Shown piece after piece: positions 1 to 18,318 of a DNA stretch of 35,532 nt (its first letter is position 1; every line of letters begins with the position of its first letter). The DNA lies in the IMG/VR virus record IMGVR_UViG_2703718856_000009, positions 1 to 35,532 of that record, one strand, 5' to 3'. The notes beneath the pieces are model-generated. The model did no database searches. It was not told the origin of the DNA and saw only the letters and a list, made by a program, of their open reading frames with translations. This DNA is from a virus. Taxonomy: Duplodnaviria; Heunggongvirae; Uroviricota; Caudoviricetes. Position numbers and translations under genes: made by a program.

Positions 1-321
1 AAGTTGGAGTCATTACCTGAAAATACAACCACTATCGCCCCGTTAACGCCATATGATAAATGGGATGGTGAGAAATGGGTGACGGATACTGAGGCACAGC
101 ATAGCGCCGCAGTAGGTGCAGCAGAAGTACAGCGCCAGTCTCTGGTTGATGCTGCTATGGCTTCCATCAGTCTGATTCAGCTGAAATTGCAGGCCGGACG
201 TAAACTGACGCAGGCAGAAACAACCCGCCTTAACGCTGTGCTGGATTACATTGACGCGGTGACGGCAACAGATACCAGCACCGCGCCGGATGTCATCTGG
301 CCTGAACTGCCGGAGGCGTAG
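1..321 (+). CDS. Tail fibre assembly protein, alternative copy in invertible segment (5'-partial)
   Basis: C-terminal region ...[30 protein letters not shown] is typical of Tfa chaperones. Frame is open to the window edge and converges on the - strand tfa. Confidence 0.7.
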
Positions 322-712
322 GCCATTCAATATCGAGTGCTGTTGAAGTATTAACACGCATCAATAGCACGCGATATTTTTTCCATGCCAGTAACAGTTT
401 CGTTTCATCATCTGTTGCCATACCTAAATCAACCGCATCCTGAAGCGGCGCTATTACATTCGTTGCCTCTGCTATCAGTGCAGATTTCTTTTCATCATTT
501 ATTAAGGCTAATTGTTCTGGTGTTGGAGAAGGACGGTCAACAATGACAGGGTGACCATTCTCACCACAGGTAATCATTTTTGTTACACTCTGCGAATTAA
601 TCAGTGTTTTCCACTCTGATTCCGAGATTTCCACTGCATCATCAGGAATATTGGTGCCGTGAAATTCAGTCGAATAAAATCCGTTTGTCGATGCAGAATA
701 AAAATATGACAT
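293..712 (-). CDS. Tail fibre assembly protein (Tfa)
   Basis: Tfa-like C-terminus (..[45 protein letters not shown]..). Start taken as internal ATG at 710-712, 5 nt after the tail fibre stop, not the ORF-track start at 808. Confidence 0.75.
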
Positions 713-716
713 TTCG

Positions 717-1367
717 TTAATATCCCATTGCAATGTAATACGCATCAGCAGATGAACCATATCCTGAACCGGGCGACACTGTAATATCAAATCCAGTGTT
801 ATGGACATTTGTCGCCGATACAGTCGGCTGCCCTGACGCGCCAGTAACGTTCAATGTAACTGTGACAGCAAGGACTCTTGAGAATGTCATCGGGAACCTC
901 ATCCCGTATGTTGAAGATACATTAGGGGAGCCATTCAACTGACCGCACTGTAAAATTAATCCAGACGGAAATTTTTGCGCAGCAGCCGTTGCGGTATTAC
1001 TTGACGCGAACAGGCTCATATCAGGTATCTGATTCGCCCCTGTACCTACATTCCTTTTAGCTGCTTCTCCCAAACCAAGGTTTTCGAGAGCCGTTTTCAC
1101 CGTGCCATCCGATTTGATATCGCCAAACGGATTCTTGCGGCTTAACAGCAGCGCGCGAAGTGCGGTAAGCAACTGATCGTGCCGCCCCTTCTCCAGGCTG
1201 GCACCGGATGCCTCCACCACGCTGCAAAGCTCCTCCTGCAACATGTCAAAGTAGTCATCATCCAGATCGGTGGCAGGCGTGCCAGTCTGGGGGTTACCAC
1301 GGGTAAAACCGTTCTTACCCGCGCCGAACTTATCCTTCTGCGCGGTTTTCGTGTCTATACGATGCAT
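717..1367 (-). CDS. Tail fibre protein, 216 aa (constant N-terminus plus invertible C-terminal part)
   Basis: Last structural gene before tfa; start abuts the stop of the upstream tail gene. An invertase crossover-like site lies at codons ~93-101. Confidence 0.7.
1065..1090. other. Site-specific DNA invertase crossover site (hix/gix-like), inside the tail fibre gene
   Basis: TTCTCCCAAACCAAGGTTTTCGAGAG: imperfect 12-bp inverted half-sites around a central AA; the AACCAAGGTTTT core matches my recollection of Hin hixL. It encodes ALENLGLGE in the fibre. Confidence 0.6.
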
Positions 1368-1370
1368 GGA

Positions 1371-1955
1371 TTACTCCGGATATTTAAAAATCACATAGGT
1401 ATGCGACGGGCAGAGTTTGTTAAGCACACACTCGACAACGGTGTCCCCCCAGAAGCGCAGCGCGGAATCACAGGGATCGCCACATGTCATCCAGGTGGTG
1501 TTGGTGGCGACTGGCATGTTGACCTGCCAGTAATACCGCCATTCCGGCGCATTCACCGCGTCAGTACAGGCAGATGAGCAGGTGAACGTGCTTTTGTCGT
1601 ATCGCGTGATGGTAGCGTCTGGTCTGCCCAGGGCAGCAAGCTGTGCAAGGTAAAAATCCTCATTGATGCCGCCCGCCAGGTTAACCTTCGCATCCAGTCG
1701 TTGCTGACGCTGGCGAAGGGTCTGTGTCCCTGCGGGAATACATTCATCCGGCAGACCGCACAGACGCTCCCAGCGGTTTATCAGTTCAGTGGTGGTGTGC
1801 GGATCCAGCTCCCGCATCAGGGCATCCGCACGCTGATGAACGCGGGTTAATGACGGTGCCGCACCGGCAATCGCCGGATCTCTGGCTGACCACGCCGGAC
1901 CGGGTGGCAACAGTGCCGACAACAGACGGATGTAATCATCGTTTGTCACGTCCAT
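1371..1955 (-). CDS. Mu gp48-like tail/baseplate protein
   Basis: 194-aa ORF between the baseplate J-like gene and the tail fibre, in Mu-like tail gene order. Confidence 0.65.
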
Positions 1956-3004
1956 GAAATCGTCCCCAGTACCGCCAGTTCATTTTTTGCAATGGAGATA
2001 TTGTCCGCCGGTGCAAGCAACTGATGGCTGTATTCCCCGTTCGCACCGGAAATCGCTTCACTGATACGTGACACCTTCAGTTCTCCCTGCGGATAACCAT
2101 CACGCAGCAGGAACGAACGCAACTCGGCGGTAATGGCAGCCCGTATTTCCGGTGTGTCCGGCGTCACACGGATATGAAAATCCACTTTATGCGCCACCGG
2201 CCTGAATACATACAAATCAGAGCCTGCCACCGGGGCCAGTGGCCCGATATGTTGTCTTGCCGCCGTTTCCGTTGATTCTTCCGGAATGGGATTAATCAGG
2301 TCACTGCCGGCAATCATCACACCGACAGTCCCCGTTCCCATCCAGTGTCGGTATGTCCATGCGCGGGTAATGCCGGGCACTTCTTTAGCCCAGACGACAT
2401 AGTCCCCGTCAGCCCCGCCCTGAGGCGTCCAGTAATACCGCTCAATGACGCGGGCGCGCCACGTTTCCAGCTCTTCAGTATCAAATCCACCTGTCAGGGT
2501 ATCTGCCACGCCGGAAGACGGCAGACCATTCACCGGCGTGACCAGGATTAATGACGTACCGTCGTCAGCGTTACCGACCGCGCCTGCACTTGAGCAGGCG
2601 ATCGGCACGCGCAGGACACCACCGGTGCTGGTTGCATCGGCAGTTGCCGTGTACTGCACCAGGTCATCGCGCTGAATAACACTCCCGGCGGTCACCTTCA
2701 GGCCATCGCTGACACCTTCCCAGCGCATATACCCGCTGGCAGCCGTGGCCCCCTTGCGCGGACACCGTTTCATCGCAGCATGTCGCGCCAGCCAGGACTC
2801 ATCGCACAGGTCAGGCAGCATGTTCATTGCCAGATAATCGATGTAACCGTAAACCGTATGCAGCGCCGCCGCATACACCTTTGCCCGCACGTCTTCATCC
2901 ATGCGCCGGAGCGTGTCGCTGACGTCCAGCCTGGCGAATAAATCGTTACGGAGCATACTGATATTTTCTGCCAGCGTCGGGCGCTGAAATTCACTGTCCG
3001 CCAT
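1946..3004 (-). CDS. Baseplate J-like protein (Mu gp47-like)
   Basis: 352-aa ORF in baseplate position; call by size, synteny and sequence character. Confidence 0.8.
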
Positions 3005-3419
3005 GCGTTATCGCACTCCACAGATCATCAAAAGAAATCATTACTGGTCCATCACGACGCCAGAGGGTGATACTGTTACCCAGCTCATTAATCCCGGTGC
3101 GGCGGATATCCAGATCAATACGGGACACCACGCCGTCATCAATCATCCATTGCAGGCATTCGCGGATATATCCCCTTACCGTCTGCACCAGCTGATTGGT
3201 CAGTTTGCTGCGCTGAAGCAGCCACAGTCGGGAGCCGTAACGGTCATTCTGTACCGCAGGCCAGGTATCCCCCCACCATCCCATCGGGACGTCGGCGTTG
3301 TCATCAGGCTCCGCCCGCCGCCAGGTAAACAGGGAAATCACCACGGCGCGGGTCAGCGGATCCAGCGGTGCGCTGGCGCAGGTGCGTTTACCGTTCACCG
3401 TCAGCCACAGTTCCATCAT
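2991..3419 (-). CDS. Baseplate protein (Mu gp46-like)
   Basis: 142-aa ORF overlapping its neighbours, in Mu-like order. Confidence 0.7.
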   Translation of the reverse strand: MMELWLTVNGKRTCASAPLDPLTRAVVISLFTWRRAEPDDNADVPMGWWGDTWPAVQNDRYGSRLWLLQRSKLTNQLVQTVRGYIRECLQWMIDDGVVSRIDLDIRRTGINELGNSITLWRRDGPVMISFDDLWSAITHGGQ

Positions 3420-3964
3420 GCCTCCATCGCTTTATCAGGTTTGTCGGTGTTACTGCCCTGACCGTTCTCTCTGTGACGATGCCCGTTATAGGCAAGCCGC
3501 ATCGCTGACATGGTGGTGCCGCCGGAGTCGCACAGGTCTTTCACCTGTCCTGTCACTTCCAGGTCCATTTCAAAACGTGCCTTAGGCGCATTGCGAAACG
3601 TGATCGTTTTACCTGCACCGTCCACCACGATCCCCTCCCGGGTCAGCGTCACAGACTGCCCCTGATCGTCATAGACAGCCACCTCACCCGTCTGCAGCCC
3701 TTTCAGGCGGTAGCGCCGGTCCGACACCGTAACAACCACCGCATGAGAACGGTCGCCATCCGGAAACAACACCACCGCTTCCGCACCGCTGTTTGCCCTT
3801 GCGGTAAAACCGTAGGGTTCAAGATGTTCAATCCCGGCTTTGGGTTCACCGGCAATCAGGGACACATCCACGGTCTGACATTTCGTGGCGGCACTGATGC
3901 TTTTCACCACTGCCCGCCCAATCAGGCCGAGGAGTTGTCGCTGCATGGCTTCAATCGTCCTCAT
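3416..3964 (-). CDS. Baseplate assembly/spike protein (gpV / Mu gp45-like)
   Basis: 182-aa ORF in the expected position of the Mu-like tail module. Confidence 0.7.
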   Translation of the reverse strand: MRTIEAMQRQLLGLIGRAVVKSISAATKCQTVDVSLIAGEPKAGIEHLEPYGFTARANSGAEAVVLFPDGDRSHAVVVTVSDRRYRLKGLQTGEVAVYDDQGQSVTLTREGIVVDGAGKTITFRNAPKARFEMDLEVTGQVKDLCDSGGTTMSAMRLAYNGHRHRENGQGSNTDKPDKAMEA

Positions 3965-5043
3965 CAGAACGGGTCCTCCTGTACTCTGGCTTTTTTCTTT
4001 TTCCGCGCGCCGGGGGCTTCGGGTTCAGGCAGATAAGCATCAGGCGGGCCGACACGGATTTCCGTCAGGGTGCCGTTCTGGTCCTGAGTAAACGTGACTT
4101 CCGAAACAAGCAGTTCGGTATTGTCGAAACCACAGACCGGATCAAAGACAATCACCCGCTGGTTGGGCTGCCACAGCGTACCGTTACCCTGTCGCCAGCC
4201 CTGCACCACATAGGTGGTTTCATCCGTCCGCGCCGCCCGTTGCCGGGCTTCAAAGTCAGCACGCGCAATACAGCCTGCCCCCGTAGCCTGCCCTGTCTGC
4301 CTGATATACATCGGACGGTAACGGGCAATAAATGCGTCCTCTGTGCGGGCCCGCAGCGCGGTGGTGGTGGCCTCACCGAAATCATCGTCGTTTCCGGCAC
4401 GCTGCCCCGCCACCTGGTAAACAGAAAATCGCTCCCGGATACTCTTCTCCGTATCGCAGGAAAGGATGTTTTCCCCGAGTACCAGCGCAGTATGTGCCCG
4501 CGTTGAGCCAATACCGCCAATCACCAGCCTGCCGTGCGGGTCGTCGTAAGCCAGTGCCTGCTGCTGACCGAGTATTTTGTTGATTACCTCAATCACCGTT
4601 TCACCGTGATCAGGCTGAACATCAGGAATAACACCCGACGGCGCACCGCTGTTCACCACCTCAATGCCGAAAGGCGCAGCAAGCGCCTGCGCAATCTGTA
4701 CCAGCGATCGTCCGTTAAACTGTGTCGGTTCGGCTGCACAGTCAATCAGGTCAGCGGTCAGACTGCGTCCGGCAATACCGGTGCTGACCGAACGGGCATC
4801 GTAACGAACGGGCGTCGCCTCCACCCAGCCGGTGATCACCAGCTCATCACCAATCAGCACCTCCACTTTTGAACCGTTTTTAATGCGCGGCTGAAGCGTG
4901 GTAATACCCTCATCTCCCGGCCACTGGCGGGTGATCTCCACACTGAAATCCCGCGCCAGCCGTTCAATACCGGCACCGATGCGCACCGATGTCCAGCCAT
5001 TCCACTCCCGGCCATTTACCCGTAGCGTGACATTGTCGTTCAT
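3964..5043 (-). CDS. Tail/baseplate hub protein (Mu gpP / P2 gpD-like)
   Basis: 359-aa ORF between the N-like and spike genes. Confidence 0.75.
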   Translation of the reverse strand: MNDNVTLRVNGREWNGWTSVRIGAGIERLARDFSVEITRQWPGDEGITTLQPRIKNGSKVEVLIGDELVITGWVEATPVRYDARSVSTGIAGRSLTADLIDCAAEPTQFNGRSLVQIAQALAAPFGIEVVNSGAPSGVIPDVQPDHGETVIEVINKILGQQQALAYDDPHGRLVIGGIGSTRAHTALVLGENILSCDTEKSIRERFSVYQVAGQRAGNDDDFGEATTTALRARTEDAFIARYRPMYIRQTGQATGAGCIARADFEARQRAARTDETTYVVQGWRQGNGTLWQPNQRVIVFDPVCGFDNTELLVSEVTFTQDQNGTLTEIRVGPPDAYLPEPEAPGARKKKKARVQEDPF

Positions 5044-6416
5044 TGCACTGGCACCTTCAGAGGGATCACCGGCACAAAGCCGGGATGCGTAATGGCATTA
5101 CGCCGGATAATGTCCGCGTCACGCGCCGCGTTATCAAACCAGGTCGCCGCCAGCACCAGCGCGGGTAAAACCTCATCCGGTGTGCGCTGAATGATCCGTG
5201 CAGACTGTTCAAGGCGCGTGTTGATATCCGCATTCAGATCTGCTTTCACCCGGCGCAGCGCCAGAAACAGCGCATCGCTGGTTGTACGGGACAACTCCTT
5301 ATCAATTGCCGTATTCAGTGTGTCGCGAATGTCAGTCAGTTCTTCCCACGTCGGCAGGTCAACCGTGTTTTTCACCGCCGGTGCATTGTTCAGTGCCGGA
5401 TGCGTGACGGAAGGCCAGCAAGTGCTCTGCGCGGGTGTTGTTGCCTGCCCCACTGCGGCATTCTGCATCACCGCGGAAGTTGTTGGCGCAGGCAATCGGG
5501 TGACGGCATACGCCGCTTCGCTGATTGCGGTCGTACGAAGGGTGCTGGCAACCACGTTACGCTGCTGCGTCGCCGTGGCGGTGGTTTTACTGTCCGTTTT
5601 CCAGACGCCGCGGGGTTGCAGATCGCTGCCGAGGCTGACACCGGAAAGCGTTTTGATCATGGTGACCAGGTCGCTGGCGTTACCATAAAGGCGTTTCCCG
5701 GTACGCCACATTTTCTGCACCTGCTCAACGAAATTTTTGCCTGACGATGGCGGCGGCAGAAGTACCGAGATATCCCCCTGCAACAGCCTGGCGGCATCCG
5801 ATACGGCAGAATCCACCACTTTCATCGCATCAGAAACATACCCCAGCATTATGCTGGCATTACCGATAACGTCGTTCTGCACGAAATCCGCCACACCATC
5901 GATACTGAAACCGCTGAAGCTGTCACTGATGCAGTCATCCAGTGCAGAACAGGATGACATCAGCGTCTGCGCCGTCGCCGCACCTGATGTGGGGTAAGAG
6001 AGTTCTCCCGCTTCGACAAACTTCAGGTCAAAGCGGACAATACGCCCTTCACTCTTCGATGTGCTGACCCGAACTTCTCCGTCAACACAGACTTTCAGCT
6101 CACCGTATGTCGGATGGACAAGCGTGCCGGGACCGGGTTTATTCAGCGCGTCAATCAGGCGATCGCGCTGGTCAAAGCAGTCATCTCCCACCACATAAGC
6201 CGTGATGGACGGGCGAAAAGTGATTTTCCCCAGGTCTTCGGTATAGGGTTTGTCGCGGTTCGGGTATTCATGTGTTTCCACACGGCGACCGGTTCCCGCA
6301 CTTTCTTCTTCAACCTTAAACGGCACGCCGCGAAATGACGCGTCCTGAAGTCTGTCACGCCAGCCTGAAGACGACGAAAGTAATGAAGGTCGGGTGGGAA
6401 ATGAGGATAAATCCAT
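5040..6416 (-). CDS. Mu gpN-like DNA circularisation protein
   Basis: 458-aa ORF immediately downstream of the tape measure gene, as in Mu. Confidence 0.75.
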   Translation of the reverse strand: MDLSSFPTRPSLLSSSSGWRDRLQDASFRGVPFKVEEESAGTGRRVETHEYPNRDKPYTEDLGKITFRPSITAYVVGDDCFDQRDRLIDALNKPGPGTLVHPTYGELKVCVDGEVRVSTSKSEGRIVRFDLKFVEAGELSYPTSGAATAQTLMSSCSALDDCISDSFSGFSIDGVADFVQNDVIGNASIMLGYVSDAMKVVDSAVSDAARLLQGDISVLLPPPSSGKNFVEQVQKMWRTGKRLYGNASDLVTMIKTLSGVSLGSDLQPRGVWKTDSKTTATATQQRNVVASTLRTTAISEAAYAVTRLPAPTTSAVMQNAAVGQATTPAQSTCWPSVTHPALNNAPAVKNTVDLPTWEELTDIRDTLNTAIDKELSRTTSDALFLALRRVKADLNADINTRLEQSARIIQRTPDEVLPALVLAATWFDNAARDADIIRRNAITHPGFVPVIPLKVPVQ

Positions 6417-6440
6417 AGACTGACCTCAAAAAGGACTGCG

Positions 6441-7031
6441 TTATCGTGGAAAACGAAAAGGGGAATACCCCACATCGTGCGTGATTTTCATCAGGGGATC
6501 GGCTTTGCCCGGTACATCAATTATCTTCATACCTGGCGGAGCATTCTCGAACGTGACTTTCAGCTCGCTGTGCTGTGTCATGGAAGAAGATGGATTCAAC
6601 AGCGGAACATTGGGTTTGTACTGGCTCAGGCTGGCCTGATACTGCTCGTACTCTTTACGATCAAAAAAAGGCGTCCAGTCTGAAGCCAGAAACAGCCCTT
6701 TATTATCCAGCCAGTTAACCGTATCTTCAGGAACAACACTTTCCAGAGTATCTTTAACCGGCTCATACATCAGGGTTCCCAAAAAACCATATACCCCGGC
6801 CTTCCCGATAAAGCCGCGGCCTTTCCCCATCAATCCCGTTTCTGCCGATACCTTCCCCAGCGTACGCATCTCTCTGGTCACTGCGGTAATGGATTTGGTA
6901 ACGTCAGCAACCCATTTGGTTGCCATAAACAGGGCAATCGCTTTCAGAACAGTTTCCCATCCCCCCATCACCTGCGCCGTTTCATCCACCACGTGCCAGA
7001 CTTTTTTATGACAGGGCCTACGGTTTCCCAA
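6441..7031 (-). CDS. Tape measure protein, C-terminal part (frame-shifted relative to 6968-8347)
   Basis: Reads on from the upstream ORF after a 1-nt frame change at the T6 run 7002-7007 (A6 on the coding strand). Confidence 0.65.
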   Translation of the reverse strand: MGNRRPCHKKVWHVVDETAQVMGGWETVLKAIALFMATKWVADVTKSITAVTREMRTLGKVSAETGLMGKGRGFIGKAGVYGFLGTLMYEPVKDTLESVVPEDTVNWLDNKGLFLASDWTPFFDRKEYEQYQASLSQYKPNVPLLNPSSSMTQHSELKVTFENAPPGMKIIDVPGKADPLMKITHDVGYSPFRFPR

Positions 7032-8347
7032 TTATCAATAATGAGGTAAGCGCCACCAACCAGAAGAGCAATCAGCCCCTTAGCAGGCGTCATATTCATC
7101 ACACCGCCGAGAACTTTCATGATTCTGGACAAAGAGCCTGCAGCGGCCCCCACTGTCAGTAAAGCCAGACCGATTTTAGCAATGGTCTTAACGAGCTCCG
7201 GGTTTTCACGGACAAACGTTCTCACTTCCTCAAGGAGCGGTTTTACCGCTTCAAGACCATCATTAACCTCAGGAAGAAACGTTTCCCCCAGCGTGGAAGA
7301 AATGGCATCAAGTTGATTTTGCAGAAGTAAAAGCTGGTTTTCCGTCGTCGCTGCCCTCGAAGCATATTCCTTCTGCATCGAACTGCCATACTGCTGGGAA
7401 TCCGCAACCCGCCTGAAGTTGGTACGCAACAAATCAAGGTTAGTCAGCAGAGGTGCTATCGCGCCCAGAGACTCTTTCCCGAACAGGGCATTCAGCACAG
7501 CTGCCTGTTTTTCTTTAGGCACTTTAGCCATCGCATCCAGTACAGACAGCATGGTGCCCCGGGCATCTTTCTGCATATCAGCAGCTAATTTCTTCGGATT
7601 GATCCGCAGAAAACGCAATGCCTGTTTCTGCGATTTTGTCGCAGAATTTCCCGCGGTCAGGGAAAGCATGAAGTTCTTGATCCCTGTGGCGGCAATTTCT
7701 GACTCCACGCCCATCCCGGCAATGGTTGCCCCCATTGCCGCGATTTCGCCGGAAGCCACACCTGCAACACCACCTAAAGGACCAATACGCGTAACAATAT
7801 CGGAGATTTTCTTCGCGTTCGCCGGGCCGGTATTACCAAGGTAGTTGATTTTGTCAGCCAGCCCGGCCACTTCATCCTGCGTCATATTAAACGCAGTACG
7901 CCACTGGGCCATCATCTGCCCGGACTCTTCAGCCGTGGTATCAAAGGCCACGCCCATCTTCACCGCATCAGTGGCAAACTGCATCAGTTCATCACGTGCA
8001 ATCCCGGCCTGACCGCCAGCCGCCACAATTTCCGCGATCCCGTCTGCAGACATGGGAAGCTCAGTAGACAAAGCGCGTACCTGCTCCGTCATGGCCTTAA
8101 ACGCATCCGGCGTATCCAGACCGTCCACCACTTTGCGGACATCAGCCATCTTCGATTCAAGGGTGATGGCTGATTTTACAGGGAGTGCCAGTGCCCCCAT
8201 TATTGCAGTACCCGCCCCGGCAGCGCCCAGAGCAAGGCTGGAGACTTCTTTCTGAAATCCCTTAAGCTGACGCTGCATACCTTTAAGCGGGCCGGACAGC
8301 CTGTCAACAGCGGTGATGATGGCTTTCAGCTGAAAATTATCAGCCAT
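6968..8347 (-). CDS. Tape measure protein, N-terminal part
   Basis: 459-aa Ala/Gly-rich ORF downstream of the tail chaperone; runs into the A-run frameshift. Confidence 0.8.
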   Translation of the reverse strand: MADNFQLKAIITAVDRLSGPLKGMQRQLKGFQKEVSSLALGAAGAGTAIMGALALPVKSAITLESKMADVRKVVDGLDTPDAFKAMTEQVRALSTELPMSADGIAEIVAAGGQAGIARDELMQFATDAVKMGVAFDTTAEESGQMMAQWRTAFNMTQDEVAGLADKINYLGNTGPANAKKISDIVTRIGPLGGVAGVASGEIAAMGATIAGMGVESEIAATGIKNFMLSLTAGNSATKSQKQALRFLRINPKKLAADMQKDARGTMLSVLDAMAKVPKEKQAAVLNALFGKESLGAIAPLLTNLDLLRTNFRRVADSQQYGSSMQKEYASRAATTENQLLLLQNQLDAISSTLGETFLPEVNDGLEAVKPLLEEVRTFVRENPELVKTIAKIGLALLTVGAAAGSLSRIMKVLGGVMNMTPAKGLIALLVGGAYLIIDNWETVGPVIKKSGTWWMKRRR

Positions 8348-8431
8348 GCTTCATCTCCTCATTTATACGGACAGCCTCTGCCTCCAGATCAGCAAAGTGG
8401 GAAATAGCCGTCCGGCGAAGTTCAAGGGGGT

Positions 8432-8755
8432 TTAATTTCCAGAACCACGCGACATTGTAGAATCGCTTCCGGAGCTCTCTTCCGTCTCCAAGCCGGTAAA
8501 AAAACGCATTACAATCATGCCTGCCTTGAAAATATCCAGCTTCGTCATCTGCGCTGCAGACGAGCGCGGGATCCCGGCCAGAAGCGGGATATATTTCAGC
8601 GCCACCTGACTGTCCATTTTCATACCACCATCAGGCGAAACAGAGAAAGGGAACCCCAGCGCCTCAATCTCGTCATACGTAGGCTCACGTATTTCCAGCA
8701 CATGCAGTGTTTCTTTGTGGGCGATGATCGGTTTTTTAAGTACAAGCTCAATCAC
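8432..8755 (-). CDS. Tail assembly chaperone (lambda G-like; Mu gp41-like)
   Basis: 107-aa ORF between tube and tape measure. A -1 frame stays open from the slippery site down to the tape measure start. Confidence 0.75.
   Translation of the reverse strand: MIELVLKKPIIAHKETLHVLEIREPTYDEIEALGFPFSVSPDGGMKMDSQVALKYIPLLAGIPRSSAAQMTKLDIFKAGMIVMRFFTGLETEESSGSDSTMSRGSGN
8498..8504 (-). other. Candidate programmed -1 frameshift slippery heptamer (T TTT TTT on the coding strand)
   Basis: Seven A on the + strand, phased as T_TTT_TTT in the chaperone frame; the -1 frame continues ...LRRTAISHFADLEAEAVRINEEMKHG and stops over the tape measure start. Confidence 0.5.
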
Positions 8756-9108
8756 TGGTAATCCCCTTCTTCACCGTGGAACTCAAGATCAACCGTGCCT
8801 TCTTCGGCATTATGGTTCGCTTCGCCGTGCAGCCAGGCAGACGACAATACATAGACCTGACCGTTCGCCAGCTCGGCAGTGATGGTCATCTCATCAGACG
8901 AGGTGATTTTGCTCACCGGAAAATTCTTCGGCACCTTGAAGGTCCCTTTGACATAAGGCGCACGGTGAGTTTCCTTGCGGTCCACTGAACCGTCCAGGCC
9001 GATGATGTCATCATTGACCGTCCTGTTCATGGGCACCTCAATGCCGCCGGTCAGCGATAGCTGCTGACCGTCAATTTTGAAATAACAGGTTCCCCCGATA
9101 CGGGCCAT
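8752..9108 (-). CDS. Tail tube protein
   Basis: 118-aa ORF directly after the sheath gene (sheath-tube pair). Confidence 0.8.
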   Translation of the reverse strand: MARIGGTCYFKIDGQQLSLTGGIEVPMNRTVNDDIIGLDGSVDRKETHRAPYVKGTFKVPKNFPVSKITSSDEMTITAELANGQVYVLSSAWLHGEANHNAEEGTVDLEFHGEEGDYQ

Positions 9109-10604
9109 TATGCAGACTCCTCTGAATACTGAAGACGGAACTGGTTAACCACGGCAAAGACACGCAACTGGTTAACATAGTCAGGCGGGAACAGCGTGTT
9201 CAGGCGGTTCGGATCGCTGGCATCACGCTCCAAAACCAGGTACTGCTTAAACAGTTCGTAGTTTTCCACGATCCCCGCTCGCTCAAGCTGACGGTAGGTT
9301 GCCAGCAGTTCCCCTTTGATCACCGCCGGGGTGACAATCGCCTGACCGGGACCAAAGCGGGTACCGTCACTGGCAAGCTTGTGACGCCCGTACTTACTGG
9401 TAATGACGGATTTCAGTTTGCGCAGTACATACGCGCTGGTATGCAGCGTCTCGCTGTCGAGGTAGCTGTTATCCGCAACCCCGTAAGCGTTTTTCCTGTA
9501 CGTGGTGACATCACGCTGAATGCGCAGTACCCCGCTTTCGACATACGCCGTTGCCACGCCATGAGACAGCAGGGTCTGTTGTTCGGTCATCGTGAACCGT
9601 TTCCCCTTCGGCGCAGGCAGCATACCCACCAGCTCACCGGTCTGCGTGGGACGTGCCGGATCGTTGCGAATAAACACCGCTGCGCGGGCGGTACGGCTTG
9701 CCGCCAGCTCATCGGCAGGCGTCTGGGTGTCTTTTTCGTACCCCGCCAGGGTAATGTGCTGCTGGTTAAACTGGTCACCTGCGGTCACCAGTTCTGACAG
9801 CGTGCCGATCTTTGCCGTATACACATGACCATACAGCTGACGCGCATAGCTCCAGCGACCGCTGGTATCGTTCATCTCGGTCACCAGCGTGTTAACGGAG
9901 GCCGTGTCGTTGAACGGCAGGCCGATATAATCAAACGGCTCATCCGCCATTGCAGCCACCGCGCCGGTGAGAACCGGAGCACCCGTTCCGGCGGTACCCG
10001 TCGCCACGGCAATCTGTACGCCCGCTGGCAGCACTTCGCCCCCACCAAAGCCGTAGTAATTGAGGCTGACAGGAATTTCATTCCCGCAAAGCCCCTTATG
10101 ACGCGCGGTCAGTGTGACCACGCCTGCCGAAGATGAAGCCGTAAACGGCAGGGCCGGAACGGCATTGATGGCATCTTTGATACTGCTGGCAATCGTCGTG
10201 ACGTTATCGCCGTTGGTCACCGGAGCCTGCACGCGGGTACGTCCCACATAGACATTCACCGTGCCGCTTTCGGTTGCTTCCCCGGTCACCGTCAGCGTAA
10301 CCGTTGCCGCCGCGCCTGTGGCTTCCGGAACGGCAATCACATACAGCTCACCAAACGGGTCGGTCTGGCGATAAGCCTCGACCATACGCGCCAGCTGACT
10401 TCCCGCACCACAAATCTGGCGTGCATAGTCTGCCGACGGCATCAGCACCAGACTGTTGGCAACAATCTCTGCACCGTTATTGGCATGACCAATCAGCAGC
10501 GATGCTCCGCTGTCCTGTGCAGTATTCGCAGCCTGGTTATCCATTTCCGCATAAAACAGCGGAACCAGCGTATTCGACGGAATGGTGTTAAAGCTTATCG
10601 TCAT
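9108..10604 (-). CDS. Contractile tail sheath protein
   Basis: 498-aa ORF, size and position typical of a Mu-like sheath. Confidence 0.85.
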   Translation of the reverse strand: MTISFNTIPSNTLVPLFYAEMDNQAANTAQDSGASLLIGHANNGAEIVANSLVLMPSADYARQICGAGSQLARMVEAYRQTDPFGELYVIAVPEATGAAATVTLTVTGEATESGTVNVYVGRTRVQAPVTNGDNVTTIASSIKDAINAVPALPFTASSSAGVVTLTARHKGLCGNEIPVSLNYYGFGGGEVLPAGVQIAVATGTAGTGAPVLTGAVAAMADEPFDYIGLPFNDTASVNTLVTEMNDTSGRWSYARQLYGHVYTAKIGTLSELVTAGDQFNQQHITLAGYEKDTQTPADELAASRTARAAVFIRNDPARPTQTGELVGMLPAPKGKRFTMTEQQTLLSHGVATAYVESGVLRIQRDVTTYRKNAYGVADNSYLDSETLHTSAYVLRKLKSVITSKYGRHKLASDGTRFGPGQAIVTPAVIKGELLATYRQLERAGIVENYELFKQYLVLERDASDPNRLNTLFPPDYVNQLRVFAVVNQFRLQYSEESA

Positions 10605-10758
10605 CGGTGTTCACCTTTTTATTCACGCGCCGGATATCACCCGCTGCTTCACGGCGCAGCCAGTAGTTGTTCTCGTCAACATTTCGCCCTTCGGCGGGCA
10701 AAAGGTCGCCGCGGGCAGGGTCAGGAACTGACCGCCCTTTAACAGGTTTGACAAACAT
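10588..10758 (-). CDS. Small conserved protein preceding the sheath gene
   Basis: 56-codon ORF translated by hand (MFVKPVKGRSVPDPARGDLLPAEG...); not in the ORF track; overlaps the sheath start. Confidence 0.5.
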   Translation of the reverse strand: MFVKPVKGRSVPDPARGDLLPAEGRNVDENNYWLRREAAGDIRRVNKKVNTDDDKL

Positions 10759-10766
10759 GATGATCC

Positions 10767-11327
10767 TCAGGAAGGAAGGGGTATTTCGGTGTGATGTTCG
10801 ATATCGCCGTCAGGCCCGTTACCGGGATCGAGATAATCAACATCAATCGCCAGCGTTCGCAGTTCATCCAGACTGTTCAGGTCATCCTGCTGGCGGGTAT
10901 CGTCTTCGGTCAGCTCGCTGATGACCGAAAAATCGAACTGATAAATCAGCTCATGACGATTCAGATCCAGCAGCGTGCCGCCGTCATAGGTAATCGGGTT
11001 ACCGCACGCTTCCGGGTTCCAGCCCAGCAGAGCCTTAAAGAGCATCTGCCGGACATCGTCCACCACATCATACGAGGCAAACTGACCGCGCTCATCACGC
11101 CCGTTACTCAGTATGACAACCACGGAGAAGCCCTCTTTCAGCTCCTGCCAGTAGTCGGTCTGACTTTTGTTTTCTCCCGGAGAGTCATCACCCGGTACCA
11201 CATATGCCGCCGGGAGTTTCAACTTTCCGACCTCCGGCAGATTTTTGAACTGGGCCGCGCCTGCCACCCGGTTTTCAAAATACAGACAGCGGGCACGCAG
11301 CGCAGCAATAACAGGAGTCAGTTTCAT
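10767..11327 (-). CDS. Tail completion/terminator-like protein
   Basis: 186-aa ORF upstream of the sheath, in Mu-like order. Confidence 0.6.
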   Translation of the reverse strand: MKLTPVIAALRARCLYFENRVAGAAQFKNLPEVGKLKLPAAYVVPGDDSPGENKSQTDYWQELKEGFSVVVILSNGRDERGQFASYDVVDDVRQMLFKALLGWNPEACGNPITYDGGTLLDLNRHELIYQFDFSVISELTEDDTRQQDDLNSLDELRTLAIDVDYLDPGNGPDGDIEHHTEIPLPS

Positions 11328-11875
11328 GTTTTTTTCCTTCTTACAGGACGTAATGACCGCTGTAACTCACGGGACAGTAACTTTTGTGTCCAGTAACGAC
11401 GCTGGTCGATGACATCAGCCATAAAGTTATTACGTGGTGCCAGCCGCCAGCGGGATGAATGCTGCTTTTTCTGGCGCTTATCCTTTTTGCTCATCCCGTA
11501 TGCGGCATGACGCACACCGTAATACAGAAACGCCGGATAATACGCAGAACCTTCAGGAAAACGCCGGTTACCCTGCCCGTTTTTCTGGTTAGGGGAAATC
11601 CTGACCATCAGGCCAGAACGACGGGAGCTTTTACGGGGGACGTAATAACCTATAGAACGCGCAAGTCGTCCGGTCTGATAGCCGGGGTTTTCACCTGGAG
11701 CAGACCGACCACGTCGCATCACCAGCCGCCGGGCATCACGCATATAGACACGCCCGATTTGAACAAATGCCCTTCGGAGCCTGGCACGGTTAAACTCCAT
11801 CTCCTCCGGTTGTTTGAAATCAACGTGTAAAAATGCTGTCTGATCCACTGCGTCCTCCCATTTGTTCTTCGGCAC
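11324..11875 (-). CDS. Virion morphogenesis / neck protein (basic)
   Basis: 183-aa ORF between head-closure and tail genes. Function by position only. Confidence 0.5.
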   Translation of the reverse strand: MPKNKWEDAVDQTAFLHVDFKQPEEMEFNRARLRRAFVQIGRVYMRDARRLVMRRGRSAPGENPGYQTGRLARSIGYYVPRKSSRRSGLMVRISPNQKNGQGNRRFPEGSAYYPAFLYYGVRHAAYGMSKKDKRQKKQHSSRWRLAPRNNFMADVIDQRRYWTQKLLSRELQRSLRPVRRKKT

Positions 11876-12230
11876 CCAGTTCCGTACACTCCAGCAGCAG
11901 AAAGCGCCGCGCCCCGTTCAGATCACGCTGACGTTTCACCCGGTACACACGGTCATCACAGACCACCTCATAATCAGCAGTGATCCCCCGGCGGTAGCGA
12001 ATGGTGATGTAATGGGTGATGGCGTCCCCGGTCTGCGCGGTTTCCTGCCAGGTGGTGGCACTGGTCTGGATAACCTTCGCCCATGTCCGGAACGTAACCG
12101 GGTATTGAGGCTCCACGCCAAAGTTATCCGCGGGCATATCCACCCGCTGGCGGATCAGGACGCGTTTATTCAGTTCACCGGGGTCCGGCAGAATGTAGGT
12201 TGCGCTGGTCTGCGCCTGACGAATTTTCAT
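11820..12230 (-). CDS. Head closure / head-tail adaptor protein
   Basis: 136-aa ORF downstream of the connector gene in an HK97-like head module. Confidence 0.65.
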   Translation of the reverse strand: MKIRQAQTSATYILPDPGELNKRVLIRQRVDMPADNFGVEPQYPVTFRTWAKVIQTSATTWQETAQTGDAITHYITIRYRRGITADYEVVCDDRVYRVKRQRDLNGARRFLLLECTELGAEEQMGGRSGSDSIFTR

Positions 12231-12550
12231 TGCGGAAAGTACCTGTACGGGCCGACAAGCCAGCCAAAACTCTGCGGCATGTCGAGTTTCTCCACTTCCG
12301 TAACCGACGAGCGGTTTTCGTAAAAATGGCTGATAAGCATCAGCATCCCCAGACGAATATCATCCGGCAGGTGCAGCCCGTCCGGATCGCTGTCCGGAAT
12401 GGTTTCATCCGGTGCATAGAGCTTCCGGTTCAGATACGTTTCCGTCCGCTTTTGTGCCGCACAGGCCAGCAGTTGCAGATGGCGGTCATCAACATCGAAA
12501 TCCTCATCCAGCCGGAGTTGGGCTTTAATCTCTTCCATTGTCAGAAGCAT
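12227..12550 (-). CDS. Head-tail connector protein (gp6-like)
   Basis: 107-aa ORF following the capsid gene. Confidence 0.65.
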   Translation of the reverse strand: MLLTMEEIKAQLRLDEDFDVDDRHLQLLACAAQKRTETYLNRKLYAPDETIPDSDPDGLHLPDDIRLGMLMLISHFYENRSSVTEVEKLDMPQSFGWLVGPYRYFPQ

Positions 12551-12552
12551 AC

Positions 12553-12753
12553 TCAGCCCTCTTTACTGGTCGTGGCTTTTTTCTCTTTTGTCGCTTTACT
12601 GCTTTTTGCACTGGTTCCGCGCTCTGCTAACCCGGCCTGAAGTGCAATCTCCTGCACCCGGGCAGGAAGCGCCCCGTCGTCATACTCACCGGCCCGAATG
12701 ACCTCAACACGCATACCGTCCGGTGACCATTTCAGATCTTGTTTCAGGATCAT
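12553..12753 (-). CDS. Hypothetical small protein (Lys-rich tail)
   Basis: 66-aa ORF between capsid and connector. Confidence 0.45.
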   Translation of the reverse strand: MILKQDLKWSPDGMRVEVIRAGEYDDGALPARVQEIALQAGLAERGTSAKSSKATKEKKATTSKEG

Positions 12754-12801
12754 GATTCTTCACCCGTCAGAACAGGGGCGCGGTTCCGCGCCCCTGAGTG
12801 A

Positions 12802-14010
12802 TTACGCCACTGCAATCTTCAGCAGTTTGATGGCCTGCGAATCGACCAGCATGCCGCCGGTGCGTTTGGTGGTATAAAAACCGACAAACGGTTTATTGGT
12901 GTACGGGTCACGCAGAATGCGGGTGCCGATACGGTCAACGATGGTGTAACCCCGTTTGAAGTTACCAAATGCAATGGCTTTCGCATCAGCGGCGATATCC
13001 GGCATCTGTTCGTTTTCAGCGATACCGTAACCCGCCAGAGAGGACGGCTGCCCCAGCTCCAGCCCCGGACGCCACAGATAGTTACCCTCGCTGTCTTTCA
13101 GCAGACGGATGGCAAACAGGCTATTGTTGTTCATCATGAACTTCGCGCCTGTGCGGTGTGCCTTACGCAGCGTGTAAATCAGTTTGATAATGGCGTCTGC
13201 GGTCACCGCCGTCGCGTCGCCGGATACAATATGCTGAAGTTTGCCGAACGCCCGGACCTTATCGGTTTCATCCGTGGATTCATACGCCAGGAACCCTTTC
13301 GGCTTCTTGGTACCATCGCCGGTGGTAAAGGCAATTTCTTCCTGTTCGGCAAATTCGGTTGCCAGCTCGCTGTTGATCCATGCTTCCACGTTGAAAAAGG
13401 CATCATCCAGCATTTTCTGGGTGGCCTGCGGGTTACCGTAGATTTCCCCCATGAAAGGTTCAATCAGGCCCAGTTTTGAGGTGGCAGTCTGGGAGCGCGC
13501 GTCAGTCTCGCCAACCCATCCGGAAGCCGTGCCGCCCAGATTCACCAGTTTTTTGTAGTCGGAACCACCAACGGTGATCACCGTGGCTTCCTGGCGCATC
13601 ACCACTTCATCTTTCAGCAGGGTGAGAATGTTGCGATCCAGTGCTTCCGGCACGGCATAGCCGCCGTCTTCATCGGTGCCCACCTGTAATGCCTTGCGCT
13701 CCAGATCGCGCAGACCATCTTCACGGCCTTTACGCAGGAAGCCCACAAACGCTTCTTTATGCTCGGTGGCCAGTTTATTTTGCGCACCACCTGCCGGACG
13801 TTTCAGCTCAAGCAGCTCTTTTTCAAGATCGCTTTTGAGGTTTTCCAGCTCGCTGAGTTTCCCGTTCAGGGTTTCCACCTGCCCGGCAAGCTTGCCTTTT
13901 TCCTGCTCAATCGCATCCACGCGCTTGTCGTTCTTTGCTTTGAAGTCGTCAAACTTCTGCTGCAGCTCCTGCGCGACCTGTTCGACATCTTTAATATCAA
14001 CCGCCATCAT
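12802..14010 (-). CDS. Major capsid protein, HK97 family
   Basis: 402-aa ORF with an N-terminal coiled-coil delta-like region, directly after the prohead protease. Confidence 0.9.
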   Translation of the reverse strand: MMAVDIKDVEQVAQELQQKFDDFKAKNDKRVDAIEQEKGKLAGQVETLNGKLSELENLKSDLEKELLELKRPAGGAQNKLATEHKEAFVGFLRKGREDGLRDLERKALQVGTDEDGGYAVPEALDRNILTLLKDEVVMRQEATVITVGGSDYKKLVNLGGTASGWVGETDARSQTATSKLGLIEPFMGEIYGNPQATQKMLDDAFFNVEAWINSELATEFAEQEEIAFTTGDGTKKPKGFLAYESTDETDKVRAFGKLQHIVSGDATAVTADAIIKLIYTLRKAHRTGAKFMMNNNSLFAIRLLKDSEGNYLWRPGLELGQPSSLAGYGIAENEQMPDIAADAKAIAFGNFKRGYTIVDRIGTRILRDPYTNKPFVGFYTTKRTGGMLVDSQAIKLLKIAVA

Positions 14011-14021
14011 ATTTCTCCTGA

Positions 14022-14708
14022 TTAGAAGTTCAGATTTTTCAGTGCATTCAGTGCAGAGCCCACATCCTCAGCGTCGCGCAGGGACAGTGCGCCATAGCCC
14101 CCGGCCATGAATGCTTTGGCCTGGGTACGGGAGAGTCCGACATCACGCAGGACTCTTTCGATTTTTTTCTGTTCGGGGATTTCCCCGCGGGCCAGTGCGT
14201 TCTTGACGTCGCTGATCCGCGCCTCGTCGTTAGACGGGAACGTCACCAGGCTGACTTCCCAGAGGTCGATTTCTTTCAGCAGAAAGGCTTCTTTGCTCCG
14301 GTCGTATTCCCAGTCTTTCAGGACGTACCCAATAGAAAGGCCGGTTAACGAACCGGCCTTCATGTGTGCATGTGCGCGTTTTGCGAGGGGATCATCATCA
14401 ATAAGCAACCGTCCCCTGACGTAAAGCCCGACATCGTCTTCCTTCATTTCGGTGTAAACACCGATGGGTTCATCCATGCGGTGCTGCCAGAGCAGCGCAG
14501 GTAACGCTTTTCTGTCACTCCACGCCCGCAGGGAAGCAGCAAATGCCCCGGACATCACCACATCATCGTGGCTGTCCTTTACACCAAAGACGGAGCCATA
14601 CCCTTCAAACTCACCGGAGTCACTGACAGATTTCAGACTCAGCGGTACATCAAGACGTTGTTTCGTCTGCATTGGCGTTATCCTTCTGCTTACCGGCTTT
14701 ACTGCCAT
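14022..14708 (-). CDS. Prohead protease, HK97 family
   Basis: 228-aa ORF between portal and capsid. Confidence 0.85.
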   Translation of the reverse strand: MAVKPVSRRITPMQTKQRLDVPLSLKSVSDSGEFEGYGSVFGVKDSHDDVVMSGAFAASLRAWSDRKALPALLWQHRMDEPIGVYTEMKEDDVGLYVRGRLLIDDDPLAKRAHAHMKAGSLTGLSIGYVLKDWEYDRSKEAFLLKEIDLWEVSLVTFPSNDEARISDVKNALARGEIPEQKKIERVLRDVGLSRTQAKAFMAGGYGALSLRDAEDVGSALNALKNLNF

Positions 14709-15891
14709 CGGAGGGTTTCGTGGTCATGTTCATCGGTGTGAGATAGACATCACCACCGGGACGCGGATTCATATCTTCCAGGTCGCGGCAGTCATTGGGA
14801 GAGTAAATTCCCCAGTTGATCCCGGTGGCGTAGGCTTCAAAACGGGACTTCATATCCCCGCGCAGTAACGCCCCGGCGTTAAATTTGGCGTAATAAACGC
14901 CCTGCTTACTTTTTCGTACCAGTCCGGTGTTGATCCGCTGTTCGATGCGGGTCAGATACGGCACCAGTGAATAGTTGATAAATCCCAGCCCCAGCTCTTC
15001 GATATTGTTGAAGGTGGCGCGATCGGTGTTCTGCACCATGTGCAACGGCACCCGGAACAGACGACAGATTTCTTCAAGCTGAAACTTGCGGGTTTCCAGG
15101 AACTGGCTGTCCTCGGCGTTCAGCGCCATCGACTTCCAGTCCAGCCCCATCTCAAGGATCATCGGGCGGTGAGCATTGCCAAGCCCGGTGTGACGCTCCT
15201 CAAAATCTTTCTTCAGGCGCTCATAAGCCTGATCTGACAGCGTCTGCTCTGTACGCAACACACCCGACGTCACCGCGCCATTGCTGAACAGTCTGGCCCC
15301 GTGCTCTTCGGTCGCTGCCGCCAGCGATATTGCCTCGCGGGCATAGGCGATGGGATTCAGCCCCACCAGTCCGTCCAGCGTCAGCGTGCGCACATGCCAG
15401 ATATCCTCCTGGCTCAGTACATCCGTGGAGCCATCCGGGAATGTGACCTGATAGACCGGCTCCCAGCTACTGTTAAGCTTCGGTACCACACAGCCGGGAT
15501 CGACGGGCAGCAGTTCAGCCACTTCGCCAAATGCTTTCACTTTGTAGGCGTAAAAGTTTCCCCGCAGGCACAGACAGGTGACCACCAGCTCCCAGAACTC
15601 CTGCGGCGTCATATAGCCATTGGGATGCGTGGAGATCAGCTTATGCAGACGTTCGCCAGCGGCTCTCTGCTTCAGACTGCCGTTCAGGTGATACAGGTTG
15701 CAGGGCAACATCCCGACCGACTCCGCCAGCACCCTGACACAGGAAAAAACCGCCGTCAGTCGCATGGCCCGCTGGCTGCTGATCTGCTTTCCGGTATAGG
15801 TGTCGTAGGACAACCCGATAGCATCCGCCAGCTCTGCTGGCGTGGTCACCGGTGCGTCACTTTTTCGTTGAAATAATCCCGAAAAGAACAC
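14650..15891 (-). CDS. Portal protein, HK97 family
   Basis: 413-aa ORF downstream of the terminase genes. Confidence 0.9.
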   Translation of the reverse strand: MFFSGLFQRKSDAPVTTPAELADAIGLSYDTYTGKQISSQRAMRLTAVFSCVRVLAESVGMLPCNLYHLNGSLKQRAAGERLHKLISTHPNGYMTPQEFWELVVTCLCLRGNFYAYKVKAFGEVAELLPVDPGCVVPKLNSSWEPVYQVTFPDGSTDVLSQEDIWHVRTLTLDGLVGLNPIAYAREAISLAAATEEHGARLFSNGAVTSGVLRTEQTLSDQAYERLKKDFEERHTGLGNAHRPMILEMGLDWKSMALNAEDSQFLETRKFQLEEICRLFRVPLHMVQNTDRATFNNIEELGLGFINYSLVPYLTRIEQRINTGLVRKSKQGVYYAKFNAGALLRGDMKSRFEAYATGINWGIYSPNDCRDLEDMNPRPGGDVYLTPMNMTTKPSDGSKAGKQKDNANADETTS

Positions 15892-16073
15892 TATTTACCT
15901 CCGCCGACAGACGACTGTGTACGGTCGAGATATCGCGCCACCAGCCACGACCAGAACAGACACAACGCCCCGGCAACAACAAACCCCGCCGGGGGATAAA
16001 TCAGCCAGGCACCATACGCCAGCAAAAGCGCCCCCAGCACGCCCACCAGAGGCGCGAGAATCAGCATGATCAT
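15891..16073 (-). CDS. Small hydrophobic protein (two predicted TM segments)
   Basis: 60-aa [29 protein letters not shown]... between TerL and portal. Confidence 0.5.
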
Positions 16074-16084
16074 AATTACCTCAG

Positions 16085-17818
16085 TTAAAGCGAGCGGATC
16101 CCATAGGACTCAATGTGGTCAGACAGCGTGTCTTCTTTCTCGTACAGCATGGCTCTGCCAACCGCCATAATCAGCGCAACTGCACCATCGATTTTGTTTT
16201 CCGCCTGCTCTTTGACGGGCTTCACTAAATCATCGTTACCTGGCATGTTTTTGCCGACCACATTGCCGATACACCAGGTCATGATGGGATTGCCGTCATG
16301 ATGAAAGCGTCCCGATTCAATCGCTGCCTCCAGCTCTTTCATCGGGTCGGACATATTGGCGAAGTTCTGGACGATAGTAACGGGATTCAGGTCTTCATCA
16401 GCAAGGTCATGTGACAGCCCGGTCGCTCCGAAAGGGTCGATGGGTGACTCACTGACCGGGCTGATTTTGTTCGCCGCTTTGGCCTCTTCGAGGATGTAGC
16501 GATAATCCACCTCTGCACCATCGGTAACGGTCAGAACGCCCATTTCCACCCATTTCTGAAAGCGTTCGGCTGTCCGGCGATCTTCATTTTTCTCGACGCT
16601 ATACACCGTGTCATACGGTACCCAGAAACGCGGGGCCACACTGTAGTAATGCGTTTTACCGTCAATCTCGCGGGTATAAAGTCGCGCCATGCTGTTCATA
16701 TCCAGCTTACGCGCCAGGTCAAAGGCCAGAATGCACGGCTGCCCCTCGAACTGCTCAAGAGTCAGTGATTTATCCTCGCAGCTCTGCCAGCTCACCAGGT
16801 TGAAATACGCCGAACGCGCCGACACCCAGATATTGAGGTGTTTTGTTTTAAAGACGTTTGCCAGACGGGCGTTATTTTTCGCACGCTGCTGCTGACTTAA
16901 CAAAAATTCGCGATAAACCGACACGCCAATATTTGGATTGGCTTTTTCCAGCACCTGCGGGTCGGTCCAGTCGTCACCTTCATCAACGGTATAGATGATC
17001 CCGAACAGTTCATCGTTAGGCACCGAGCCGTTGAGCATCTCGATGACTTCCCGCCGTTTGTCGTAGCACGGCCCCTCAATGTTGTACCCGGCGGTGGTGA
17101 TGGCCCACATCAGTGGCTGACGTCGCGCCCCCATCCCGGTAAGCATTGTGGTATAAAGCGCATCGGTGGCATGCTCGTGATATTCATCAACCACGGCACA
17201 GTGGGGTGATGAACCATCACCTGGGTTGCCGATCAGCGGTTCAAACCGCGCGCCATCCTCCGGACGGTTCATGTTTGAGGCGTTAACCTCAATCCCGAAC
17301 GCTTCCGTCAGCATGGGTGTGCGTTTACACATCAGTCGCGCCGGGCGAAAGACTTCCCACGCCTGTTTCTCTGTCGTGGCACCGGAATACACTTCCGCGC
17401 CAAACTCGTTATCACAGGCAAAACAATACAGGGCAACACCGGCAGAGATTGCTGATTTGCCGTTCTTACGGGGGATTTCGGTGTACACCTCCCGGAAGCG
17501 GCGCAACCGGGTGCCTTTATTGACCCAGCCAAACGCACAGCAGATCACAAATAGCTGCCACGGCTCCAGCGTGATGGGCATCCGTTTGAATGCCCACTCC
17601 CCCTTGGTGTGCGGCAACAGCTGAATAAATTTCGCGGCCCGTTCAGCCAGGTCCTTGTCGAAGCGGTAACGAAACGACTTACTTTTTTCCGCCATCAGGT
17701 CATCAAGATGGCGCTGGCAGGCCTGAATCACAAACTGGCAGGCAACAATCTTTCCGCGCACGACATCCCGGGCATACTGATTTGCAGCATTTACGTTGGG
17801 GTAAGATTTCCGGCTCAT
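16085..17818 (-). CDS. Terminase large subunit
   Basis: 577-aa ORF directly after TerS; contains an AVVDEYHE stretch I read as a Walker B-like motif. Confidence 0.92.
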
Positions 17819-18318
17819 GATTCGATAATTTTCAGAAACGGGTTAGTGGCTTTCTTCTGCCCCGCCAGGCCAATCAGACGCTGGCGGCTGCTGGGGTCGA
17901 GTCCGAGCATTGCCCCCGTACTGCTCATCTCGGACTCCTGTTCTTTTTTGGCGGTCAGCTCCGGATTTTTGACCATGCCGCCCATTGCACCGGTGATGGT
18001 GTTGCCCTGTCTGGCAATATTTTTCACGGCACGTCGCCAGAACTCATAGGCCACGCACCACCGCTCAAGCACTGCGAGGTCAGTCACGCACAGCAGGCCC
18101 TGACCGCAGAGTTCTTTGGTTGTCAGTTGCCACATGATCGTGGCGAGAGGGAGCTCTTCTACAGCGAACCACTCCGGTGGCTCAACACCTTTGATGGGCG
18201 TAAAAACGGGTTCATCTTTGTTCAGGGCTCGCTTGCCGGGGTTTCCGGCCAGCGCCTTGCGCGCCGTTGGCTTGGGGCGACGCCCGGAACGCCCCGCCGT
18301 TCCAGCCATATGCGGCAC
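17815..18318 (-). CDS. Terminase small subunit
   Basis: 167-aa ORF immediately upstream of TerL. Confidence 0.8.

Follow-up and report, generated by a model that had tools for sequence, protein, structure and literature searches.

A probable relic of an e14-type tail-fibre inversion segment at the left edge of an SfIV-type prophage

The window, by which we mean the whole 35,532-nucleotide stretch of caudoviral DNA analysed here (IMG/VR record IMGVR_UViG_2703718856_000009), opens with a group of tail-fibre genes whose coordinates are collected in Table 1. The fibre ORF (717-1367, minus strand) encodes a 216-aa protein with a Gp53-like_C tail-fibre domain (Pfam), and upstream of it lies a ymfQ-type gene, the last gene of a conserved baseplate module whose gp45-gp48 genes are Mu-like. 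A 26-bp sequence, TTCTCCCAAACCAAGGTTTTCGAGAG, occupies codons 93-101 (ALENLGLGE) of the fibre gene; it has an AAACC-NN-GGTTT core and sits at the boundary between the constant (Sc) and variable (Sv) parts of the gene. The fibre is fixed in one configuration, in which Sc, the site and Sv are followed by a U-type chaperone gene. The start of this chaperone is uncertain, with ATG codons at 712, 745 and 760; the longest ORF reaches 808, and gene calls in relatives give products of 144-155 aa. Its C-terminal 13 letters are common to e14 TfaP. On the plus strand, a frame open from position 1 to a stop at 321 also matches Caudo_TAP, and the two chaperone ORFs, 293-808 (minus) and 1-321 (plus), converge with a 29-bp overlap at 293-321. 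The tfaP and tfaE genes of e14, a cryptic prophage in E. coli K-12, converge in the same way and overlap by the same length (positions 4018-4046 of e14 extract L006). The initial annotation had picked out both the hix/gix-like site and the pair of converging assembly genes, and both observations stand: the site is unique and matches its e14 counterpart throughout, as described below, and each assembly frame is recognised as Caudo_TAP (E 3e-31 and 2e-26).

Table 1. Positions of the features discussed in the text, in window coordinates.
Feature	Position	Strand	Basis
Terminal 17 nt of IS1 copy (outer inverted-repeat end)	1-17	+	Identity to K-12 IS1A end
3′ fragment (C-terminal ~101 codons) of tfaE-type assembly gene	18-321	+	Pfam Caudo_TAP, E 1.7e-26
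Tail-fibre assembly chaperone (U-type), expressed cassette	293-760	-	Pfam Caudo_TAP, E 3.2e-31
Variable C-terminal part (Sv) of tail-fibre gene, Gp53-like_C receptor-binding domain	717-1064	-	Pfam PF21882 at aa 132-216
Orphan Pin-type (pix) crossover site, encodes ALENLGLGE	1065-1090	.	Uniqueness and identity to e14 stfP site
Constant N-terminal part (Sc) of tail-fibre gene	1091-1367	-	e14 StfP match; DNA 95-96% identical to relatives
YmfQ / Mu gp48-like baseplate wedge gene	1371-1955	-	Pfam Phage_Mu_Gp48, E 2e-26; ymfQ in relatives
int, tyrosine integrase	32911-34074		Phage_integrase, E 3e-48
tRNA-Thr(CGT)	34089-34164		
417-aa ORF, putative proA	34279-35532		Reading from position and size
Homology blocks, e14	left 9-355; right 1056-2000		
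Homology blocks, E. coli VTB97420v	left 9-446; right 1015-2000		
Homology blocks, phage SKA5	left 40-334; right 1017-2000		
Homology blocks, vB_EcoM-689R6	left none; right 1064-2000		

The window as a whole closely matches phage SfIV. Four megablast blocks covering 5-34134, except 27844-28876, align with SfIV at 99.3-99.9% identity (99.3% over 5-2000 and 99.9% over 5-18376), and E. coli CFSAN061762 is 99.8% identical to the window. The right end has the arrangement of the SfV family, with a tyrosine integrase gene and integration at thrW/proA, the locus at which SfI integrates (PMC3636060). These features identify the source as an SfIV-type serotype-converting Shigella/E. coli myovirus prophage at thrW/proA. 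In SfIV, CFSAN061762, SfV and ten genomic contexts encoding the identical fibre protein, a gtrA-gtrB-gtr(type) operon lies between the tail genes and attL.

Elsewhere in the prophage, three departures from SfIV were observed. The tape-measure gene is split into overlapping minus-strand ORFs (6441-7031 and 6968-8347) by a 1-nt deletion relative to SfIV, A7 to A6 at ~7001-7007 (1904/1908 identity), and the source record calls no gene across the region; the prophage may be defective here, or the draft assembly may contain a homopolymer sequencing error. IS1 positions also differ between these near-identical prophages. SfIV carries a 768-bp IS1 (record 35186-35953) beside the Q-lysis 'moron', where the window has an empty site at 22181-22189, seen as a 9-bp overlap of the alignment blocks; the ORFs beside the empty site (20781-21866 and 21885-22397) gave no Pfam match. 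Finally, 27844-28876, the only stretch of the window with no megablast homology to SfIV, includes a cI-like repressor gene (28155-28781; HTH_3 and Peptidase_S24), and a CII-like gene (27268-27933) overlaps its left edge. The immunity allele of the prophage is therefore not that of SfIV.

We compared the 26-bp sequence with crossover sites of known inversion systems. It is identical at 26/26 positions to the e14 stfP site (positions 3279-3304 of e14 extract L006) and identical to site 1 of the intact systems in E. coli VTB97420v and phage SKA5. The Mu gix site, TTCCTGTAAACCGAGGTTTTGGATAA, matches at 18/26 positions and falls at the corresponding motif, NLGLQE, in the Mu S protein (...FIQNLGLQE). 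In experiments published in 2025 the 1797-bp e14 P segment inverted at the repeats CCTTCTCCCAAACCAA, a reaction catalysed by PinE and, in trans, also by PinQ of the Qin prophage (PMC12529663). Within the 35.5-kb window TTCTCCCAAACCAAGGTTTTCGAGAG is unique at up to 3 mismatches (0 expected in 100 shuffles), and the site core AAACCNNGGTTT is likewise single (0.04 expected).

The patterns of homology around the site are those of a cassette boundary. In the relatives listed in Table 1, the left homology block consists of the tfaE-type gene and the last bases of tfa, and the right block of the site, the constant part of the fibre gene and the baseplate genes. From the site rightward, the DNA is 95-96% identical to e14, vB_EcoM-689R6, VTB97420v and SKA5, and no DNA homology to any of these four was found across 356-1014. 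At the protein level, fibre residues 1-101 are identical to e14 StfP at 100/101 positions, with complete divergence directly after LGLGE. Because the cassette at 356-1055 differs in every relative, we regard 1065-1090 as an authentic crossover site of the Pin type that marks a true boundary between constant and variable parts. In vB_EcoM-689R6 (ON470584.1) the junction between the constant fibre part and a StfE-type end falls precisely at the site. A deletion or rearrangement at the site was considered for this phage and rejected, as such a junction is simply what the inverted orientation of the P segment gives. The vB_EcoM-689R6 record is a scaffold with an N-run at ~1811-1821, and its annotated 171-aa 'side tail fiber protein' (1794-2309) runs into this gap.

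Complete systems of this type show what would be expected to accompany the site. The gene order in e14 is ymfQ-stfP-tfaP / tfaE-stfE'-pinE, and the partner site, TTCTCCCAAACCAACGTTTATGAAAA, lies between stfE' and pinE; the same sequence is found beside pin in VTB97420v. In both VTB97420v and SKA5 the order is invertase (-), site 2, alternative fibre end (+), tfaE (+), tfa (-), fibre (-) and ymfQ (-), with site 2 beside the invertase, 1.8 kb from site 1 and differing from it by 5-7 mismatches. The assignment of the window to the e14 P / Mu G type of layout, made in the initial annotation, is borne out by this homology, since the relatives that keep the complete system, with pin directly to the left, are 94-96% identical to the window in the baseplate genes and fibre N-terminus.

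The remaining parts of such a system were not recovered. With up to 8 mismatches allowed, neither the window nor the complete SfIV genome holds a second copy of the site apart from its own reverse strand, and with up to 7 allowed there is none in CFSAN061762 or the SfIV locus sequence, so that an inverted partner at 1.8-3 kb is lacking in the window, SfIV and CFSAN061762 alike. A degenerate partner in the window was ruled out separately, as no other 12-nt half-site occurs at up to 1 mismatch in the window or SfIV. In tblastn searches at E≤1e-3, PinE matched nothing in the window, the flanks of SfIV and CFSAN061762 or the ten fibre contexts, and at E≤10 the window and the whole SfIV genome gave only noise of 11-14 residues. 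The same search detected e14, vB_EcoM-689R6 and VTB97420v at E of about 1e-119 or better and SKA5 at 2e-66. By this measure the adjacent serine invertase gene, which would also carry the recombinational enhancer, is missing. As to why the orphan site persists, the probable reason is that it encodes a conserved junction motif, ALENLGLGE, in a fibre that is functional; a young lineage is a further probable cause, and the two are not separable because the flanks are equally conserved.

Only one of the two converging cassettes is full, comprising 717-1064 and the chaperone from 293 to ~760. The other is represented by the plus-strand segment 18-321, which is identical at 304/304 positions to SfIV ORF-22 and to a pseudogene in CFSAN061762, but only 92-94% identical to intact tfaE genes, the maximum being 94.4% with tfaE of e14. 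SfIV ORF-22 (record 18057-18581) abuts ISEhe3, has GTG as its called start codon and aligns to nt 89-603 only of e14 tfaE, the first 88 nt being missing; the CFSAN061762 copy is annotated by PGAP as 'incomplete, missing N-terminus'. In the report describing SfIV, ORF-22 was presented as a unique additional tail-fibre assembly protein that possibly explains host range, and inversion was not mentioned (PMC3851460). We consider it most likely that ORF-22 is a 5′-truncated tfaE pseudogene, and this re-reading as a tfaE relic is a small annotation correction rather than a discovery. The truncation is common to SfIV and CFSAN061762, each of which matches the window at 99.3% identity or more, and it is therefore most probably older than the window lineage. 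Related assembly genes are found well outside this group of prophages: the tfaE-type fragment at 9-334 is 93-96% identical to genes in very different phages, among them P2-like phages, HK106, pro483 and Klebsiella and Citrobacter phages, a distribution that points to a widely exchanged module.

In the window this remnant is cut a second time. Positions 1-17, AAGTTGGAGTCATTACC, are the reverse complement of the final 17 nt of K-12 IS1A and form the outer end of an IS1 terminal inverted repeat; the contig carries no more of the element. This short stretch diverges from SfIV and CFSAN061762, both of which align only from about position 18. Window position 1 is the first base of the 57,535-bp draft contig LOPP01000045.1 (GCA_001576395.1), whose first 10,321 bases are identical to the window and whose record has a gene at positions 1-321 for a partial product of 106 aa; no other record was retrieved with this product. 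The exact 40-nt junction (window 1-40) had 0 matches in IMG/VR, GTDB genomes and JGI metagenomes. The window therefore begins where the draft assembly broke off within an IS1 copy, one that has inserted into the plus-strand chaperone gene, and the segment 18-321 appears to be a pseudogene left over from the alternative (U') cassette and severed by this IS1. At the other end of the element, the source would be expected to read ...GATTACCCTGAAAATAC and then the IS1 left end, GGTGATGCTGCC.

The left flanks of the closest relatives indicate what may lie beyond the element. SfIV has, in order, the truncated tfaE, an IS3-family element (ISEhe3), gtrIV, gtrB, gtrA and attP/int, and CFSAN061762 has the same arrangement adjoining host genes. 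In SfV the order is fibre, tfa, terminator, gtrV, gtrB, gtrA and int. In each of the ten ±10-kb contexts that encode the identical 216-aa fibre protein, tfa is followed by gtr genes, and the contexts that were read are all in one orientation. Neither SfIV nor CFSAN061762 has an alternative fibre end; the IS3-family element and gtr genes are found there instead. In SfI/SfII/SfV-type prophages, homology to the window begins at 349, within the 3′ end of tfa, and the tfaE fragment is also gone. The last 12-18 residues of their Tfa proteins (...DIKNTEWPKKPESNL or ...VVKPEWPMHPNK) differ from the 18-letter end in the window (293-349), as in contexts L015 (10608-11063) and L010 (10623-11057). In these types the deletion of the rest of the inversion segment extended into the chaperone gene.

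These comparisons bear on the remaining proposals of the initial annotation. It had placed the second site, the alternative C-terminus and the invertase immediately to the left of position 1, where they "must lie"; SfIV and CFSAN061762 have the truncated tfaE, an IS3-family element and gtr at that place, and the leftward search for an inverted site and an invertase that it had suggested, when run on these two genomes, found neither. Of the two chaperones that it had listed as genes, the minus-strand one is a gene, and the plus-strand one is a 3′ fragment in which bases 1-17 belong to IS1 and not to the fibre module. The statement that the window opens inside an invertible segment named the right family of elements, but the window begins where the assembly broke within a pseudogene, and very probably not in a live switch.

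Taken together, our results indicate that window 1-1367 very probably represents an invertible tail-fibre segment of the e14 type (Pin family) that has decayed and no longer switches. Its ancestral state would have been pin, site 2, Sv', tfaE, tfa and Sv-site 1-Sc, an arrangement that survives in relatives with the same baseplate module. Extrapolating from SfIV and CFSAN061762, the sequence beyond IS1 should contain about 200 nt more of the tfaE fragment, then ISEhe3 of the IS3 family, which would account for the loss of tfaE nt 1-88, followed by gtrIV-gtrB-gtrA and attL; neither an invertase nor a second site nor another fibre end would be present. A lone site without an invertase would not allow enhancer-dependent intramolecular inversion, and a single fibre type would be made. 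SfIV is a viable myovirus (PMC3851460), and the fixed fibre cassette would thus be functional in that phage.

Among the alternatives, an unlikely one is that the orphan site is used in trans by a Pin-family invertase of the host, such as those of e14, Qin or Rac-type cryptic prophages, in combination with pix-type sites of other prophages, leading to exchange of fibre cassettes or large chromosomal rearrangements. The site is a perfect copy of a proven substrate on which PinQ acts in trans (PMC12529663), and homology to the relatives resumes 0-50 bp on the variable side of it (at 1064, 1056, 1017 and 1015), although these resumption points, while fitting cassette exchange, fit any set of different inversion cassettes equally well. 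The window itself holds neither an invertase nor a partner site, and no rearranged junction at the site was seen in any SfV-family context examined. Moreover, invertases of the Gin/Hin/Pin type require a single supercoiled molecule that carries two inverted sites and a Fis-bound enhancer, and recombination between molecules or over very long distances is disfavoured, which argues against such use. That the orphan pix site is at present a live substrate for trans-acting Pin-family recombinases of host cryptic prophages, by analogy with PinQ and e14, we regard as quite unlikely. If it were, receptor-binding cassettes could be exchanged between prophages, or rearrangements could be anchored at thrW, giving host-range or surface-protein variation with no cognate invertase.

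We consider it very improbable that the locus is a live host-range switch, with Sv', the second site and pin just beyond IS1 and the segment still inverting. Exactly such a layout, with pin adjacent, is present in VTB97420v, SKA5 and e14, which are 94-96% identical to the window in the baseplate genes and fibre N-terminus, and vB_EcoM-689R6 shows the alternative junction at the site. In addition, the source DNA is seen only from the contig start at position 1 rightward. IS1 is able to mediate deletions and inversions, so that the true left neighbour in the source could be anything, even in principle a retained invertase module. Against a live switch, the tfa' fragment is the SfIV-lineage pseudogene base for base, whereas its identity to intact tfaE genes is 92-94%. 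The whole prophage is of SfIV type; the ISEhe3 truncation is common to SfIV and CFSAN061762, and in both of them the gtr operon stands where pin would be expected. A Pin homologue is absent from ten of ten contexts of the identical fibre protein, and because IS1 disrupts tfa', the alternative cassette would be without its chaperone even if the other parts were present. It is scarcely tenable that the resemblance is coincidental, with the 26-mer encoding a conserved fibre motif (ALENLGLGE, compare NLGLQE of Mu S at gix) beside tandem or duplicated chaperone genes unrelated to inversion, for although tfa fragments without invertases are carried by many phages, the 26/26 DNA match to the e14 site, the 94.4% identity of tfa' to e14 tfaE, the equal 29-bp overlap and the presence of pin and a second site at the expected distance in intact relatives all argue for homology by descent.

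If the locus is a locked remnant, as we favour, the SfV/SfIV family of Shigella serotype-converting phages would descend from an e14-like phage in which a Pin-type switch controlled host range. Where the invertase side of that switch would be expected, SfIV, CFSAN061762, SfV and the other contexts that were read have IS elements and the gtr/int module instead. The locus also illustrates that convergent chaperone genes and a crossover site are not proof of a live switch, and that a sequence may end where it does for no other reason than that its contig broke at an insertion sequence. Its components are all known already, from the site of the e14 P segment and tfaE to IS1 and the SfIV genome as published, and the significance of the observation extends little beyond annotation.

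Comparison with known systems places the window closest to SfIV (NC_022749 / KC814930; ORF-20, -21 and -22 with ISEhe3), with which it shares the fibre, tfa, the orphan site and the tfa' remnant; it differs in the extra IS1 in this remnant, the lack of an IS1 near the Q-lysis moron, the immunity region and the 1-nt tape-measure deletion. The e14 P segment resembles the window in the crossover site, the upstream ymfQ, tfaE and the convergent overlap. Unlike e14, the window has no pinE, second site or stfE-type alternative end, its tfaE copy is a fragment cut by IS elements, and its expressed Sv and tfa cassette (356-1055) is unrelated in DNA to stfP-C/tfaP; the place of pinE in e14 is taken by the gtr serotype-conversion operon in SfIV and CFSAN061762. 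The VTB97420v prophage and SKA5 share with the window the baseplate genes, ymfQ, the fibre N-terminus (about 95%), the identical site 1 and a tfaE-type gene converging on tfa, but keep the invertase, site 2 and alternative fibre end that the window lineage is without. In comparison with the Mu G segment, the window lacks a gin homologue and a second site, its site matches gix in part only, and its fibre is much shorter (216 aa versus 504 aa in Mu). What the two have in common is a crossover site inside the fibre gene, at the boundary between constant and variable parts, together with converging chaperone genes.
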